Positions 1,953 through 40,674 of a stretch of DNA of 64,000 nt are shown piece by piece. Both the position numbers and the translations under genes were made by a program. The stretch is from Nitrospirota bacterium. GTDB lineage: Bacteria > Nitrospirota > Thermodesulfovibrionia > Thermodesulfovibrionales > SM23-35. Under the pieces are notes generated by a model that was not told where the DNA came from, made no database searches, and saw only the letters and a list, made by a program, of their open reading frames with translations. The stretch lies in contig JBFLZS010000003.1 in assembly GCA_040756135.1 (NCBI GenBank), positions 3,412-67,411 on the forward strand. The letters run 5' to 3'. The first letter of the stretch is position 1. The number at the start of each line of letters is the position of its first letter.

Positions 1953-2792
1953 TCATTCTCGTTCTGCAAACAGTGCCGCTCCATAAGCCGCATGGAAATA
2001 AGGATTTTCATGAACATAAATATGCTTTTTTAAACGCTTCTCGAGCATCTTTTTAAGGCAGGGGTTTTTTGCACAACCACCTGCAAAGACTATATCATCC
2101 TTAACATCAATCCTTTTTATGAGTGCAACAACCCTATTTACTATAGATTCGTGTATGGCATGAGCAATTAACTCTCTTTTTTCACCCTTAGTAATTAAGC
2201 TAATAACCTCGGACTCTGCAAAAACAGTACACAAACTATTTATCTTTACAATTCTGGTTTCACCTGAAAATCCCCCCATCCCCCCTTTACTAAAGGGGGG
2301 TGAGGGGGGATTATTTTCATTATCATTTGTGTCGCTATGTAACATGATTGTTTCATTGTTATAATTGTTACCGAAATCCTCTATATTGTAATTGAGGCCC
2401 TTTGCCATGATCTCAAGGAATCTCCCCGTTCCGGCTGCACAACGATCATTCATTTCGAAGTTGATAACAGCACCATCTTCATCAAGACTTATTACTTTTG
2501 TATCCTGGCCACCTATGTCTATGATTGTTCTACAGTTTGGGAATATCTCATTGGCACCTTTTGCTACAGCTTTAATCTCAGTAATGGTTTTAACATTCCC
2601 ATGAACTTCGAGTAAATGCCTTCCATAGCCTGTTGCTACGAGTTTGTCAGGTTTGTTGTAATCAAGCAGTTCTCTGCAAACTGATAGAGGGTTATGTCCG
2701 GTATCTCTCCTTTGAAATTCGAGGAAACGGCTATCCTCTAAGAAAACATATTTAATATACCGTGAACCAATGTCAATGCCGCTGATCTTCAA
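1953..2792 (-). CDS. HgdC/BadFG-type ATP-dependent activase (ASKHA, [4Fe-4S]), copy 2, with a 31-aa repeat-derived insertion
   Basis: GIDIGS, ATGYGR, IDIGGQDTK, MNDRCAAGTG and CTVFAESE motifs; paralog of 9994..10740. Confidence 0.9.
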   Translation of the reverse strand: MKISGIDIGSRYIKYVFLEDSRFLEFQRRDTGHNPLSVCRELLDYNKPDKLVATGYGRHLLEVHGNVKTITEIKAVAKGANEIFPNCRTIIDIGGQDTKVISLDEDGAVINFEMNDRCAAGTGRFLEIMAKGLNYNIEDFGNNYNNETIMLHSDTNDNENNPPSPPFSKGGMGGFSGETRIVKINSLCTVFAESEVISLITKGEKRELIAHAIHESIVNRVVALIKRIDVKDDIVFAGGCAKNPCLKKMLEKRLKKHIYVHENPYFHAAYGAALFAERE

Positions 2793-2863
2793 GCCTTTAC
2801 ACCTTTTCCAATCATTTCAAGGAATGCCTCGACCCGAGTCTTCAACTGTCCCATGTCTCCCAT
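2789..2863 (-). pseudogene. C-terminal remnant (24 codons) of a second double-cubane reductase gene
   Basis: Translates to MGDMGQLKTRVEAFLEMIGKGVKA*, versus MEDMGQLKTRIEAFLEIMEKGVKA* at the end of 8702..9997; same TTGA overlap with the activase. Confidence 0.85.
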
Positions 2864-8701: not shown

Positions 8702-9997
8702 ATGTCAAAAGACTACAACAAGATGTGGAGCGATCTTGATTTAAATCTTACCGCTCATGACGGTTTGTTAGGAGTACTTACAGATGCTTACAAGAATATT
8801 TATCTCTCTCAAAAAAATCGTCCTGAGGGTATGAAATATTTTGATTTTGTTATATCAGAAGTTCACGGCTTAAGAATTGAAGAAATATTAGAGGCTAAAA
8901 AAGAAAAAAGAAAGGTGATCGGAACATTTTGCGTGTATGTGCCGGAAGAACTTATTCTCGCTGTTGATGGTGTTGATATCGGTCTCTGTGCCGGTGCCGA
9001 AGTTGGTACGGATGGGGCAGAAAAATATATTCCAAGGAATACATGTGCACTCATAAAAGCTTTCATGGGGTTCAAACTCGCTGGTCTCTGCCCATATGTC
9101 CAAACGACTGATTTGATAGTAGGAGAAACGACCTGTGATGGTAAGAAGAAGGCATATGAAATTTTTGATGAAATAACACGTGGTAAAGTATATGTGATGG
9201 AGGTACCCAACAAGAAAGGCAAGGAAGGGATAACACTTTGGCGAAATGAGGTAAAACGGTTTGCTAAGAAACTGGAAGAATTATCTGGTAAAAAAATTAA
9301 TCTGGAAAAATTAAAAGAAGCCTCACAGATCGTGAAAGAAAAAAGAAGGGCATTACAAAGATTGTCTCTTTTGAGGGCTTTCGACCCATCCCCTATTTCT
9401 GGACTCGATGCCCTCCTTGTGAATCAGATCTCATTTTACGACGATCCTGTGCGTTTTACGGTAAAGCTTACTGAACTCTGTGATGAACTTGATGAAAGAG
9501 TAAAGAAAGGGATAGGTGTGACTGAGAAAGGAAGCAAGAGAATTCTCATCTCTGGTTCACCGATGGCTATTCCTAACTGGAAATTGCATACGATTATTGA
9601 AGGATGTGGCGCTTCAGTGGTTGGAGAAGAGTCATGTGTCGGTGAAAGAAATTTCATGGCTACTCTTGACGATAGTTTCTCTTCTGTTGAAGATGGAATT
9701 CAAAAGATTGCCGATAGGTATATGAATATACATTGTGCATGCTTTACTCCAAATGAAGAACGTATAAAAGACATAGGAGATATGATAAAAAGACTCAAGG
9801 CTGACGGAGTAATTCATTATGCTATTCAGTTCTGTACACCATACATGATGGAATCATATAAAGCAAAAAAAGCTGTTGAGACATTGAAGGTCCCTTTTTT
9901 GCGAATTGAAACCGATTACAGCATGGAGGATATGGGACAGTTGAAGACGCGAATTGAAGCATTTTTGGAGATCATGGAAAAAGGTGTAAAAGCTTGA
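8702..9997 (+). CDS. Double-cubane-cluster-type anaerobic reductase (2-hydroxyacyl-CoA dehydratase/HgdB-FldC family)
   Basis: GTFCVYVPEE, CALIK, CPY, ETTCDGKKK, EESC, CACF, QFC and ETDYS motifs; coupled to an activase. Confidence 0.8.
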   Translation: MSKDYNKMWSDLDLNLTAHDGLLGVLTDAYKNIYLSQKNRPEGMKYFDFVISEVHGLRIEEILEAKKEKRKVIGTFCVYVPEELILAVDGVDIGLCAGAEVGTDGAEKYIPRNTCALIKAFMGFKLAGLCPYVQTTDLIVGETTCDGKKKAYEIFDEITRGKVYVMEVPNKKGKEGITLWRNEVKRFAKKLEELSGKKINLEKLKEASQIVKEKRRALQRLSLLRAFDPSPISGLDALLVNQISFYDDPVRFTVKLTELCDELDERVKKGIGVTEKGSKRILISGSPMAIPNWKLHTIIEGCGASVVGEESCVGERNFMATLDDSFSSVEDGIQKIADRYMNIHCACFTPNEERIKDIGDMIKRLKADGVIHYAIQFCTPYMMESYKAKKAVETLKVPFLRIETDYSMEDMGQLKTRIEAFLEIMEKGVKA

Positions 9998-10740
9998 AGA
10001 TTGGTGGCATCGATATTGGTTCTCGGTACATTAAATACGTTATCTTAGAGGGTAATCATCTTATCGAATTTCAAAAGAGAGAAACAGGACATAACCCTCT
10101 ATCAGTATGTAGAAAGTTGATTGACAATTGCAAAACTGGCAAACTCGTAGCGACAGGCTATGGAAGGCACTTACTTGAAGTTCATGGTAATGTTAAAACT
10201 ATCACTGAAATTAAAGCAGTGGCAAAGGGGGCAAGGGAGGTATTCCCCCGCTGTCAAACAATTATAGACATAGGGGGACAGGACACAAAGATAATAAGTC
10301 TCCGTGAAGATGGGACTGTCACAAACTTTGAAATGAACGATCGATGTGCAGCAGGAACCGGGAGATTTCTTGAAATCATGGCAAAGGTTCTTGGGTATGA
10401 TCTGGAAAATTTCGGTGACTACTGCAACAATAAAAATGGCACTGTTAAAATAAACAGTTTGTGTACAGTATTTGCTGAATCTGAGGTTATTAGCTTAATT
10501 ACTAAAGGAGAAAAGAGAGAGGTCGTTGCTCATGCCCTCCATGAATCTATAGTTAGCAGGGTTATCGCATTAATCAAGCGGGTTGAGGTTAGAGATGACA
10601 TTGTCTTTGCAGGCGGGTGCGCCAAAAATTCCTGCCTTAAAAGGATGATCGAGGAGCGTTTACAGAAGGAAATCCATGTTCATAATAATCCATACATGCA
10701 CGCTGCCCATGGGGCAGCACTTTATGCAATGGAAATGTAG
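9994..10740 (+). CDS. HgdC-type ATP-dependent activase (DCCP-R-like), copy 1
   Basis: GIDIGS, IDIGGQD, CAAGTG and CTVFAESE; TTGA overlap with the upstream gene. Confidence 0.9.
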   Translation: MKIGGIDIGSRYIKYVILEGNHLIEFQKRETGHNPLSVCRKLIDNCKTGKLVATGYGRHLLEVHGNVKTITEIKAVAKGAREVFPRCQTIIDIGGQDTKIISLREDGTVTNFEMNDRCAAGTGRFLEIMAKVLGYDLENFGDYCNNKNGTVKINSLCTVFAESEVISLITKGEKREVVAHALHESIVSRVIALIKRVEVRDDIVFAGGCAKNSCLKRMIEERLQKEIHVHNNPYMHAAHGAALYAMEM

Positions 10741-25397: not shown

Positions 25398-27767
25398 ATG
25401 ACGCCATACGATGAATTAATCAATGAGTTATCTGAACTATGTGGAATTGTTCCAGAATACTGGGATATCTTTGGTGAAAAGTGTATAACTTCTATTGAAA
25501 CTAAAAAATCTGTGCTCAGGGCAATGAGACTGAAGATTGATTCAGTGGAGGACATATTAAAGGAGATTAATGAACGAAAGTACAGACCATGGAAAAGTTT
25601 CATTGAACCTGTACATGTCATATCAGTAAATGACCAGCCATTGAAAATCCCTGTTTATATTCCCATCGAGGAAGGTGGAGAGAAAAAACTATCACTGTTA
25701 TGGTCTATAGAGGATGAAAATAATTCCCATGAATCCCCCCACACCCCCCTTTGCAAAAGGGATAATCCCCCTCAGTCCCCCTTTAGTAAAGGGGGATTTG
25801 AGGGGGATTTTAAAGGGGGGATGGGGGGATTTTCAGGTGAAAACAGTCAAAGAAATGTATTTACGCTTTCAGGGGAAGCAATAACTGTTTCAGAACAGCA
25901 GTGGATAGATGGGATAAGATATATAAAGATAATCCTCTTTGATATGATAGTCCGAGATATAGGGTATTATGTGATTCATGTGGAATGTAAGCATCCTGAA
26001 AGTATCTTCCCATGTGGAACAAACCTTTTATGGAAAACATCTAAGGTCATTGTAACCCCCGATACTTGTTATATGCCACCTGGACTATATGATAGAAGAA
26101 CATGGGGGCTTTCTATTAACCTTTACTCACTTCGTTCATTTAGGAACTGGGGCATTGGCGATTTTTCTGACCTTAAAAAAATTGTTGAACGGGTTGCTGA
26201 TTTAAATGGCGGTTTTGTTGGAATTAATCCATTACATGCTATTCCAAACACAACCCCTTTCGGTATCAGTCCGTATTCTCCCATAAGCAGGTTGTATAAA
26301 AATTTTATTTATTTGGACATTGAAAGTATTCCCGAGGTTATAGAATCTGAAGATGCACAGTCAATTACAAAATCCTCGTCATTTAAAGAAGAGATTAAAA
26401 AACTCAAAAAAAGAAAATTGATTGATTATGAACAGTTAGCTTCACTAAAGGAAAGAATATTGCGACACGCCTTTGAACTCTTCTATAAAAAGCACTATGC
26501 CCAAGATACCCTGAGGGGAAGGGACTTCCAAGAATATATCTCAGAAGAAGGCATTGTCCTTGAGTCCTTTGCCATATTTATGACGCTGTGGGAAAACATG
26601 AAGAAGGCGCATAATGTATATACATGGCAACAATGGCCTGAGGGATACCAAAGCCCAACGGATGACGCTGTTCAGGGGTTCAAAAAGAAATATGAAAAAG
26701 AGATACTCTTTTATAAATATATTCAATGGCTCATTGATGGTCAACTCGGAGAAACAGCAGAACTGGCCAGAGAACTTGGAATGGTTGTGGGTCTTTACCA
26801 TGATCTCGCTATCGGCTCGGTTGACGGAGGCAGTGATGTATGGAATTATCAGAATGTTGTTGGAAAGGCAGATGTTGGCTCTCCTCCAGATGATTTTAAT
26901 CCAAATGGTCAGAACTGGGGTTTCCCTCCTGTGATTCCCGAGAGGTTAAGGGAAACAGGATATGAATTATTCATTCAAACAATGAGAAAAAATATGAAAT
27001 ACGGCGGTGCCCTGAGAATAGACCATGCACCGGGCTTGTTCAGGCTTTTCTGGATACCCTATGGAACATCTCCTAAAGAAGGTACGTATGTATTGTATCC
27101 ATCTGAGGACCTTCTCAGAATCATTGCGCTGGAGAGTGTACGAAACAGGACAATGATTATTGCAGAAGACCTTGGAACAGTAGGGGAGAATGTCAGAGAA
27201 ACGCTTAAGAGATTCCAGATGCTTTCTTACAAACTTTTCTATTTTGAAAGGAATTATCCTGACCCTTCGTTTATTCTTCCTGAGGAATACACTGATATGG
27301 CATTATGTGCTATAACCACCCACGACCTGCCGACAATATACGGTTACTGGAAAGGCGAGGATCTGAAGATTAGAAAAAAACTGGGTATGTATCCAGATGA
27401 TGCCCTTTGGAAAAAGCAAGTCAAAGAGAGAAAGAGGGATAAAAAACTTATCCTCTCTGCCCTTAAATCTCAAGGTATCATCCCGGATGATTTCCCATCA
27501 GAACCAAAAAAGATACTACAGATGACTCCGGAACTATGCCTTGCCATATACCGGTATCTTGCAAAAACTCCGTGTAAATTAGTGCTTGTAAGCCTTGATG
27601 ACATTATTGGGACATTAAATCAGCAGAACATGCCGGGCACGGTTGATTCATATCCCAATTGGATGCAAAAGACATCACTGACTCTTGAAGAAATAATTTT
27701 GGACAGGCGCTTCCTTGACCTTCCCGAGATGTTTAAAAAAACATTAAAGCTCAGTGAAGGTCGATGA
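25398..27767 (+). CDS. malQ: 4-alpha-glucanotransferase (GH77) with an in-frame palindrome insertion
   Basis: WGIGDF, SPYSP, DLAIG, GQNWG, RIDH, AEDLG and TTHD. Confidence 0.92.
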   Translation: MTPYDELINELSELCGIVPEYWDIFGEKCITSIETKKSVLRAMRLKIDSVEDILKEINERKYRPWKSFIEPVHVISVNDQPLKIPVYIPIEEGGEKKLSLLWSIEDENNSHESPHTPLCKRDNPPQSPFSKGGFEGDFKGGMGGFSGENSQRNVFTLSGEAITVSEQQWIDGIRYIKIILFDMIVRDIGYYVIHVECKHPESIFPCGTNLLWKTSKVIVTPDTCYMPPGLYDRRTWGLSINLYSLRSFRNWGIGDFSDLKKIVERVADLNGGFVGINPLHAIPNTTPFGISPYSPISRLYKNFIYLDIESIPEVIESEDAQSITKSSSFKEEIKKLKKRKLIDYEQLASLKERILRHAFELFYKKHYAQDTLRGRDFQEYISEEGIVLESFAIFMTLWENMKKAHNVYTWQQWPEGYQSPTDDAVQGFKKKYEKEILFYKYIQWLIDGQLGETAELARELGMVVGLYHDLAIGSVDGGSDVWNYQNVVGKADVGSPPDDFNPNGQNWGFPPVIPERLRETGYELFIQTMRKNMKYGGALRIDHAPGLFRLFWIPYGTSPKEGTYVLYPSEDLLRIIALESVRNRTMIIAEDLGTVGENVRETLKRFQMLSYKLFYFERNYPDPSFILPEEYTDMALCAITTHDLPTIYGYWKGEDLKIRKKLGMYPDDALWKKQVKERKRDKKLILSALKSQGIIPDDFPSEPKKILQMTPELCLAIYRYLAKTPCKLVLVSLDDIIGTLNQQNMPGTVDSYPNWMQKTSLTLEEIILDRRFLDLPEMFKKTLKLSEGR

Positions 27768-35106: not shown

Positions 35107-35262
35107 ATGTAACCTTTCAGTTATGAGTGCATGAATAGTTGCATATTGTTGTTCCCCTCTTTGGCAAAGAGGGGTTAGGGGAGATTTTTTAATGATATTA
35201 TAAAATCCCCCTCATTCCCCCTTTTCCAAAGGGGGATTTGTTAACCCGTAACTGAAGGGATA
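35107..35262. mobile_element. 156-bp miniature element, copy 1
   Basis: Near-identical inverted copy at 39116-39271. Confidence 0.9.
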
Positions 35263-39115: not shown

Positions 39116-39271
39116 TATCCCTTCAGTTACGGGTTAACAAATCCCCCTTTGGAAAAGGGGGAATGAGGGGGATTTTATAATATCATTGAAAAATCTCCCC
39201 TAACCCCTCTTTGCCAAAGAGGGGAATAACAATATGCAACTATTCATGCACTCATAACTGAAAGGTTACAT
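39116..39271. mobile_element. 156-bp miniature element, copy 2 (inverted)
   Basis: Reverse complement of 35107-35262 with about 2 mismatches by eye. Confidence 0.9.
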
Positions 39272-39288: not shown

Positions 39289-40674
39289 TCAAGTATATGC
39301 TGTTAGCCTCTTCAAGATCTCAAAAAATCCCGGGAATGATATGTCTACAGATGAAATGCCATTTATCGTCGTAGTCCCATCAGCAATAAGGGCTGCTATT
39401 GACATCGCCATTGCAATCCTGTGGTCTCTATAGCTTTCTACAACAGTACCTTTTAATCCCCCCTTACCCGTGATACTCAGACCGTCATCAAATTCTTCGA
39501 TTTCTGCTCCCATTTTTCTAAGTTCTGTTGCCATGCTCTTGATTCTATCTGATTCTTTTACCCGCAATTCCTCTGCTCCCCTGATAGTTGTGGTGCCTGT
39601 AGCCTGAGTTGCCGCTACACAGAGGATTGGAAATTCATCAATAAGCGTTGGGATCTCTTCTTTTGTTATATTTATAGCCTTCAGCTTTGCACCGCCTTTG
39701 CAGTGGATATCTGCAACAGGTTCACCTACAAAAAGTGACGAGTGACGAGTGACGAGTGACGAGTTAACAGAAACGTCCCTTATATTAGTTAATTCTATAT
39801 TTGCTCCCATCTCTTTGAGGACATTAAGGAGGCCTGTACGCGTAGGATTAATTCCTACCCCTTCTATTGTTATATCAGAATCTTTGATCAGTAATGCACC
39901 GATTATGAAGAATGCAGCAGATGAGAAGTCCCCTGGCACGTGAACCTCCGTACCTTTTAATTCTATTCCGCCTCTTATTCTGACACGGAGTCCGTCAACC
40001 TTTATCCTGGCGCCAAAGGCAGGCAGCATACGTTCAGTATGGTCCCGTGATTTGAGAGGTTCTATTATCTCTGTCTCTCCATCAGCATAAAGACCTGCAA
40101 GAAGGATCGCTGATTTCACCTGCGCACTTGCTACAGGCAAGGTATATTTTATTGGCCTTAATCTTTTCCCTTTTATAGCGATGGGGGGATATTTGTCCTC
40201 ACCCCTTGCCATTATCTCGGCGCCCATCTGCCTTAATGGATTAATGACCCGGGCCATGGGCCTTTTTCTCAGGGATTCATCACCGGTAAGTACAGAGAAA
40301 AACGGGTTCCCTGAAAGCACTCCTGACAGGAGTCTCATCGTCGTTCCAGAATTTCCGCAGTTTATGACATCAAAGGGCTCTTTAAGACCATATAATCCTT
40401 TACCTTTGACTATCAGTTCACCTGAAAATCCCCCCTCACCCCCCTTTTCTAAAGGGGGGGATGGGGGGATTACAATCTCCTGAATTTCCATACCAAGCTT
40501 CCTGAAGGCATTAATTGTGCTTATTGTATCTTCTGCCATTAGAAGATTTCTTATAATACTTTTCCCTTTTGATAGGGAAGAGAAGATTACTGCCCTGTGG
40601 GATATGGATTTATCAGGGGTAGGAGAAAACTTGCCTTTAAAGCTCCTTGCCTTGCTGATTTCAATTCTATCCAA
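39289..40674 (-). CDS. aroA: EPSP synthase with two repeat-derived insertions
   Basis: DKSISHR, GNSGTT, SAQVKS, KESDR and DHRIAM. Confidence 0.96.
   Translation of the reverse strand: MDRIEISKARSFKGKFSPTPDKSISHRAVIFSSLSKGKSIIRNLLMAEDTISTINAFRKLGMEIQEIVIPPSPPLEKGGEGGFSGELIVKGKGLYGLKEPFDVINCGNSGTTMRLLSGVLSGNPFFSVLTGDESLRKRPMARVINPLRQMGAEIMARGEDKYPPIAIKGKRLRPIKYTLPVASAQVKSAILLAGLYADGETEIIEPLKSRDHTERMLPAFGARIKVDGLRVRIRGGIELKGTEVHVPGDFSSAAFFIIGALLIKDSDITIEGVGINPTRTGLLNVLKEMGANIELTNIRDVSVNSSLVTRHSSLFVGEPVADIHCKGGAKLKAINITKEEIPTLIDEFPILCVAATQATGTTTIRGAEELRVKESDRIKSMATELRKMGAEIEEFDDGLSITGKGGLKGTVVESYRDHRIAMAMSIAALIADGTTTINGISSVDISFPGFFEILKRLTAYT

Follow-up and report, generated by a model that had tools for sequence, protein, structure and literature searches.

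A 93-bp insert in an activase gene as a probable miniature of an IS110-family, bridge-RNA-guided element

The window analysed here, a 64,000-nucleotide stretch of a Nitrospirota genome, contains two acyl-CoA dehydratase activase genes, one of which carries 93 bp that the other lacks. We conclude, with a probability of about 0.88, that this insert is a non-autonomous miniature of the IS110 family, which a full-length relative, supplying the recombinase and the bridge RNA, probably mobilised in trans. [quoted passage not shown] Insertions at gene starts would be tolerated because ATG-AAA starts are common and the right end reads GTG- or ATG-AAA behind a purine-rich tract. Within genes, only stop-free 93-bp copies would be retained, in this case in a variable loop, and the copy in the activase would by now be old and immobile.

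The activase pair and the history of its site

1953..2792, minus strand: activase copy 2, an acyl-CoA dehydratase activase of 279 aa, its frame open through the insert
9994..10740, plus strand: activase copy 1, the insert-free paralogue of 248 aa, with TAAAA at the site (10431-10435)
2789..2863, minus strand: remnant, 24 codons long, from the C-terminal end of a dehydratase D-component gene, before copy 2, compared with the ORF at 8702-9997

Both copies match BcrAD_BadFG / CoA_E_activ in a domain search. The original prediction held that they are colinear save for one 93-bp insertion, and their pairwise alignment bears this out, with a single 93-nt gap and zero further indels. The GTTTCA direct repeat that it described is likewise present at 2257-2262 and 2350-2355, spaced 93 bp apart; across 20,000 random 18-nt junction windows of the source genome, a repeat of at least 6 nt at this spacing arises by chance in 0.6%. 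The paralogues agree at 579 of 747 nt (77%; 168 substitutions), and no fewer than 12 placements of the gap, between 437 and 449, share the top alignment score, so that the boundaries of the element cannot be fixed from the activase pair alone. Inspection of the flanks of other genomic copies, which had been proposed as a check, indicates that TGAAA is common to the family across 25 complete copies in the source genome. The sixth base agrees with the right end in 3 of the 25: a C is invariant after the left TGAAA and follows the right TGAAA in those 3 copies. The true repeat is 5 bp and its sixth base is coincidental; of the predicted TGAAA(C/A) consensus, a TGAAA-like target holds across the family, whereas the 6-bp repeat does not. 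The two genes had also been read as the filled and empty states of one event, and here the insertion stands, but copy 1, which reads TAAAA where the target TGAAA is expected, is a diverged paralogue without the target.

It is barely credible that the insert was ancestral to both paralogues and was lost from copy 1 by recombination between the repeats. The two copies do differ by exactly one repeat-to-repeat unit, yet such a loss would leave TGAAA, whereas copy 1 has TAAAA, with a K codon common to insert-free homologues, and among 14 homologues the insert is confined to copy 2 and the activase of one other genome, G017. In the G017 gene this insert has a decayed right half, and the gene groups with copy 2 (support 91/92, below the star threshold). 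Contigs from two sequencing runs, X5 and X9, are 88-90% identical to copy 2 and insert-free, the G017 orthologue being 78-82% identical; because these contigs are closer than G017 yet lack the insert, the history of the site is not that of a simple filled and empty pair. X5 reads TAAAA at the insertion site, and a clean single TGAAA is absent there from the 10 + 1 insert-free homologues and from the X5 contig; none of the contigs obtained from sequencing runs supplied an intact empty allele. Identity between copy 2 and the G017 gene is highest around the insert (55/60 in both adjoining windows), with third positions agreeing at 36/48 near the insert and 115/199 far from it; the insert may have entered copy 2 by recombination, as a patch.

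At the protein level, the insert residues (147-178) are predicted to be disordered, the rest of an alignment-based model being confident, and the insert falls between the aligned blocks of solved activators. Both cluster cysteines are kept in copy 2. The use of this copy is uncertain, because it is preceded only by the 24-codon dehydratase remnant. Positions 2789-2970 of the window hold this remnant together with a double C/G hairpin repeat, which stands in place of the remaining dehydratase gene.

A dispersed mini-element family and its autonomous relatives

Aligned with its relatives, the insert resolves into the following parts:

2258..2350, minus strand: 93-bp mini-element (left end, cargo and right end, including the AA core), with boundaries from 25 complete copies and autonomous elements
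2351..2359, minus strand: host DNA, left half of the target (ACAATGA) plus the putative core AA (2351-2352), fitting the target-guide type N3-ATGAAA of autonomous relatives
2313..2350, minus strand: left end, 38 bp, the same as is found 5' of the IS110 recombinase gene in autonomous copies
2330..2344, minus strand: left-end hairpin, decayed here, with covariation over 110 distinct left ends
2324..2330, minus strand: distal left-end motif ACAAATG (ACAAAGG in the family), matching a segment of the RNA donor loop
2313..2319, minus strand: inner inverted repeat TGAAAAT, pairing with ATTTTCA at 2265-2271
2269..2312, no strand assigned: palindromic cargo of 44 bp, C-run/G-run, of the type that flanks DUF559 genes and is dispersed genome-wide
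2258..2266, minus strand: right-end donor 9-mer CAGGTGAAA, source of the second TGAAA and the same as the donor guide of 13 autonomous elements

BLAST and a profile scan together found 29 left ends in the source genome and 0 in a reversed-genome control; a pattern search added 3 more, and 25 of the 32 in total have a recognisable right end. All share one layout, in which an ATGAAA target is followed by a 38-bp hairpin left end, variable cargo and a right end finishing CAG(G/A)TGAAA. The pattern recurs in 15 of 301 genomes of the phylum and at no fewer than 120 GTDB loci, with about ten phyla among the matches listed. Minis with both ends number 97 distinct sequences that are short (59-262 bp), gene-less and multicopy, and that carry at least five unrelated palindrome or tandem families as cargo, or none, the cargo-less ones measuring 59-75 bp. 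Ten loci searched against Rfam gave no match to the mini-element.

The four variable pairs of the left-end hairpin are Watson-Crick in 97, 96, 101 and 82 of 110 distinct left ends, as against 45, 55, 36 and 32 of 110 in a shuffled control, kin having been kept in the set. In the activase insert, one mismatch and one G-T occur among these pairs and the fold is weak (z -1.0). The inner inverted repeat co-changes with the right end in a sister clade; inverted repeats of the IS1111 subterminal type (7 bp and 3 bp from the ends) are absent, the 7-bp repeat lying ~31 bp inside the left end.

Three of the 25 source-genome copies, namely the three of 93 bp, are translated in frame. Besides the activase insert, one of these (L312, copy C6) lies inside a 653-codon ORF and another (L314, copy C8) forms an N-terminal extension of a secretin gene. 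The source genome also has six DUF559 loci (L041-L047) that have C/G-run hairpins of the cargo type on their flanks wherever these were assembled; we rejected the DUF559 genes as a partner, as their flanks are the cargo hairpin and not mini-element ends. Family right ends behind hairpin cargo, with no recognisable left end, are seen in the window at 25830-25842 and 40416-40428, and two inverted 156-bp copies of a repeat unit, 99% complementary, at 35107-35262 and 39116-39271.

The variety of cargo bears on how the insert was built. An IS110 origin in steps, with a cargo-less mini arriving first and an independent 44-bp hairpin later, would fit both the cargo-less minis and the unrelated cargo families, as well as the independent dispersal of the hairpin, which is found beside DUF559 genes too. 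We nevertheless consider it unlikely, as copies C6 and C8 share the 93-bp build and cargo type tracks left-end lineage in other genomes; ends plus cargo therefore travel together as units.

The ends of the minis recur, left and right, in full-length elements of ~1.6 kb, where they enclose a DEDD/serine recombinase gene and a two-loop, RNA-like sequence downstream of it. Among the 120 GTDB matches listed, 5 have the left end ahead of an IS110 motif, and the recombinase scores above cut-off for Pfam DEDD_Tnp_IS110 and Transposase_20 and for NCBIfam NF033542, and matches the IS621 and ISCro4 proteins in the PDB. From 272 metagenome relatives of this recombinase we kept 77 loci. In 54 of the 57 loci that are at least 65% identical to the query, the left end lies 5' of the recombinase; the remaining 20 loci (below 65% identity) show the strict left-end pattern in 0 of 20 and have the same build in different letters. 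With the catalytic residues described for IS621 in the accessible part of PMC11208158 as reference, the catalytic D, E and DxxD are present in 57/57 of the loci with at least 65% identity and the serine motif in 51/57. Of the 38 recombinase genes that could be scored, 32 (loci L231-L305, L137, L186 and L354 among them) are split by a conserved -1 shift at an A-run directly behind the catalytic serine, as against 0 of 10 in an outer clade; the shift is likely to represent programmed recoding. One outer-clade recombinase, searched against viral contigs, gave no match. Locus L175 derives from an L137-type element by internal deletion. Relatives at 47-60% identity (L428, L430, L295-L302, L432-L439) keep the hairpin left end, but their RNA lies upstream of the gene, and their cores (AC, GT, GA, AG) and targets are different.

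The source genome itself yielded no cognate recombinase or RNA in its 172 contigs, an assembly in which repeats may be unassembled. Its sole IS110 match was discarded as a partner, being 25% identical and having different flanks. A close cognate recombinase gene occurs in 5 of 401 genomes of the phylum, and an autonomous copy whose right end is that of most source-genome minis is present in G012, a genome of the source's own family.

A hairpin at one end also raises the possibility of a single-strand HUH element (of IS200/IS605, RAYT/REP or IS91 type), whose target would be regenerated on insertion. This reading, which we hold to be very improbable, would accommodate the covarying subterminal hairpin and the head-to-tail arrays, and the source genome has 6 matches to Y1 transposase genes; mini ends, however, occur at 0 of these 6 Y1 loci and at 0 of 12 Y1/Y2 loci elsewhere, and instead border IS110 genes, with guide covariation.

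Guides, junctions and gene starts

Downstream of the recombinase in the main subclade lies a conserved sequence, predicted to be an RNA, whose predicted fold has two internal loops; 6 of the 28 pairs in a consensus fold of 18 sequences are compensatory. Guides could be parsed in 44 of 79 loci. The donor guide, a 9-mer in the second loop, is identical to the right end wherever an element has one (41 of 41), the autonomous elements compared being kin and their donor guides of only 7 types. The target guide, a 9-mer in the first loop, gives 131 matches with the left flank (positions 1-6, 28 unique pairs), as compared with 89 for the shuffled guide (maximum 110); with one pair per target guide, there are 74 matches as against 48.5 shuffled. 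The complement of a first-loop 4-mer predicts the first base to the right of the core in 25 of 32 cases (13.4 in the control), and crossed-guide controls gave a null result. The target layout is 7 nt plus AA on the left and AA plus 1-2 nt on the right (7 + 2 + 2), the AA core being placed, provisionally, by the overlap of the guides. The order of the guides is that of IS1111, with the top-strand complement 5' of the bottom-strand match. The right donor guide, which would pair with the start of the left end, is invariant (..TGTT) and complementary to AAC. By eye, each right guide is followed by two bases (AC, GC) that look like the handshake positions of IS621; such bases could explain an invariant G common to target and donor.

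The guides also bear on the origin of the flanking repeat, which had been attributed either to a target-site duplication or to an element end that regenerates its target. The two guides differ at 49 positions. There the left flank agrees with the target guide in 43 cases and with the donor guide in 3, and the right junction agrees with the donor guide in 49 of 49. Target-site duplication is therefore excluded, and the repeat consists of the target's TGAAA on one side and an element-borne TGAAA on the other, so that the second of the two proposals is the one that survives. These junctions make it scarcely tenable that a DDE transposase moved the insert as a classical MITE, duplicating 5-6 bp of target: a direct repeat does border the insert and an inner 7-bp inverted repeat is present, but the right copy of the repeat agrees with the donor guide and not with the target at every informative position, the apparent repeat varies between 4 and 9 nt with guide similarity, and tsaB changes from ATG to ATG...GTG. 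Of the hallmarks of such an element, terminal inverted repeats and target-site duplication, neither is present, and elements with a left flank of TTGAAA but a right end of GGGAAA refute it outright.

Minis follow the guides of a resident autonomous copy as well. Genome G354 holds such a copy together with 48 left ends (47 with flanks, 18 with a parsed right end); minis whose right end equals the resident donor guide lie in 7 of 7 cases at TATGAAA, the resident target guide, whereas of the minis that end differently 1 of 11 does so (p 2.5e-4). The target guides of L236, L256, L257, L262, L278 and L280 include some that match sister right ends, giving head-to-tail arrays; a strict count found such arrays in 3 of the 97 minis, below the by-eye impression.

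Comparison with homologues indicates that clean empty sites exist at tsaB and inside a cognate transposase. For tsaB, 29 of 30 loci were parsed, and 28 of 28 relatives start with ATG, 23 of them with ATGAAA; the source-genome gene begins ATGAAA-element-GTGAAA. In the second case (L357; G004:C69), a 138-bp mini interrupts a cognate recombinase gene at a site that fits the interrupted element's own target guide at 8 of 9 positions, and with the mini removed the frame is colinear with intact homologues. By eye, the tsaB orthologues (L324-L353) have a promoter-like motif ~10 nt before the ATG and no obvious Shine-Dalgarno, which suggests that their messages are near-leaderless; the element appears to supply the source-genome tsaB with a leader.

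Association with start codons extends beyond tsaB. From the right-end GTG/ATG, 13 of the 25 source-genome copies head an ORF of at least 100 codons, the background being 8.0% of 4,661 ATGAAA sites; outside gene interiors the comparison is 13/23 with 22.6% of sites (p 4e-4, on crude gene calls). A Pfam domain starts no more than 3 residues from the new start in 7 of 13 proteins scanned, and a Shine-Dalgarno-like motif accompanies 11/13 new starts, 2/13 old starts and 174/394 background sites. Elsewhere, 28 of 55 minis in other genomes head such an ORF, as against 7 in the one other open frame, and a Shine-Dalgarno-like motif is also present in 15 of 17 autonomous right ends that have ATG/GTG. 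The enrichment is compatible with either targeting or selection, between which these counts cannot separate.

The donor loop holds, on its 5' strand, a further segment with a match to the left-end motif that lies just past the hairpin. Scored with one sequence per 70% protein cluster (10 representatives of 67 parsed, 95 examined), the match is 66/90 as against 48.8 shuffled (maximum 64), and at 60% clustering it is 38/54 as against 29.2 (p 0.003). Two earlier anchor rules gave 42/49 against 31.7 and 42/63 against 34.0; three rules were thus compared, the second of which mis-anchored 2 of 7 rows, and a G/C change in the distal motif belongs to one clade and was not scored as independent. We tentatively suggest, at somewhat less than even odds, that this segment is a third donor guide (7-9 nt, 5' of the right donor guide) and that the guides have converged on RTG-AAA, parasitising start codons. 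Probably pairing with the bottom strand, the segment would match the left-end motif ~20-28 bp from the core, which hairpin extrusion would bring beside the core; the element and its cargo-swapping minis would then exploit gene starts, giving the gene a new start and ribosome-binding site. Alternatives for the distal match are shared protein recognition and sequence copying.

Relation to known systems

In the accessible parts of the literature, bridge RNAs, their natural reprogramming, an IS110 mini (MITEPpu9) and insertion sequences at translation starts are already published. The sources covered, among them 10.64898/2026.03.19.712850 and few subscription journals, with ISfinder outside their range, hold in their accessible parts no account of the mini family, of a donor guide that rebuilds start codons or of any distal guide, nor of the recombinase frameshift, and published tables of predicted bridge RNAs may still include the clade. 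Longer contiguous guides are described in the available text of 10.64898/2026.10.21.760802. That of PMC13626964 and 10.64898/2026.08.31.748434 describes excised circles that are single-stranded; these would suit a donor hairpin.

Our reading assigns an enzyme and a guide to a widespread, anonymous repeat family of anaerobe genomes, and provides a natural, multi-phylum set of reprogrammed bridge RNAs (16 target guides and 7 donor guides, cores that vary among relatives, and minimal donors of 59 bp). Minis that replace the leaders and starts of genes such as tsaB, dnaJ and lpdA can rewire translation and mislead start annotation. A third, hairpin-dependent donor guide, if true, would extend the bridge-RNA model and could raise the donor specificity of genome-engineering tools. 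The activase insert itself is best seen as a fossil in a tolerant loop.

IS900 and IS901 are members of the IS110 family. Like these elements of Mycobacterium avium (cited in PMC2942039), the present family inserts at translation-initiation signals; as described in the part of that paper available, IS900 and IS901 enter between the Shine-Dalgarno and the start codon, whereas the family cuts just after ATG-AAA, and its right end rebuilds the start codon and leader. The accessible part of PMC4607514 holds nothing on IS900 targets.

As in IS621 and ISCro4, so far as the available sections of PMC11208160 and PMC11208158 describe them, a DEDD RuvC and a serine Tnp domain are combined with a two-loop RNA, a 7 + 2 + 2 target and a short core at both junctions without duplication. 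Unlike them, the family has an AA instead of a CT core, an RNA downstream of the gene (in the subclade), a 38-bp structured left end, a gene split by a conserved -1 frameshift and many gene-less minis, and its recombinase is ~25% identical to theirs. With the IS1111 group it shares the non-coding region downstream of the gene, in the main subclade, and the order of the guides. From IS1111 seekRNA elements such as ISEc11, as excerpted from PMC11187229, it differs in that its 7-bp inverted repeat lies ~31 bp inside the left end and not 7, and in that its close relatives carry the RNA upstream.

The nearest counterpart of the minis is MITEPpu9 / ssr9 of ISPpu9, which the accessible text of PMC12288879 describes as a non-autonomous IS110-family mini with parental ends and tandem copies. 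MITEPpu9 is found in one species, with REP targets and a small RNA, whereas here the minis span many phyla, with start-codon targets and swappable palindromic cargo. Experimental precedent for movement in trans exists for both ISEc11 and MITEPpu9 (PMC11187229 and PMC12288879, in their accessible parts), and by analogy the present minis would have moved in the same way. Finally, like the Rickettsia palindromic elements, as portrayed in the available part of PMC10969869, the insert is palindromic DNA translated in frame within an enzyme; unlike those elements, only 3 of 25 copies are in frame and a mobilising enzyme is identified. The family behaves like a Rickettsia palindromic element at the activase site only.
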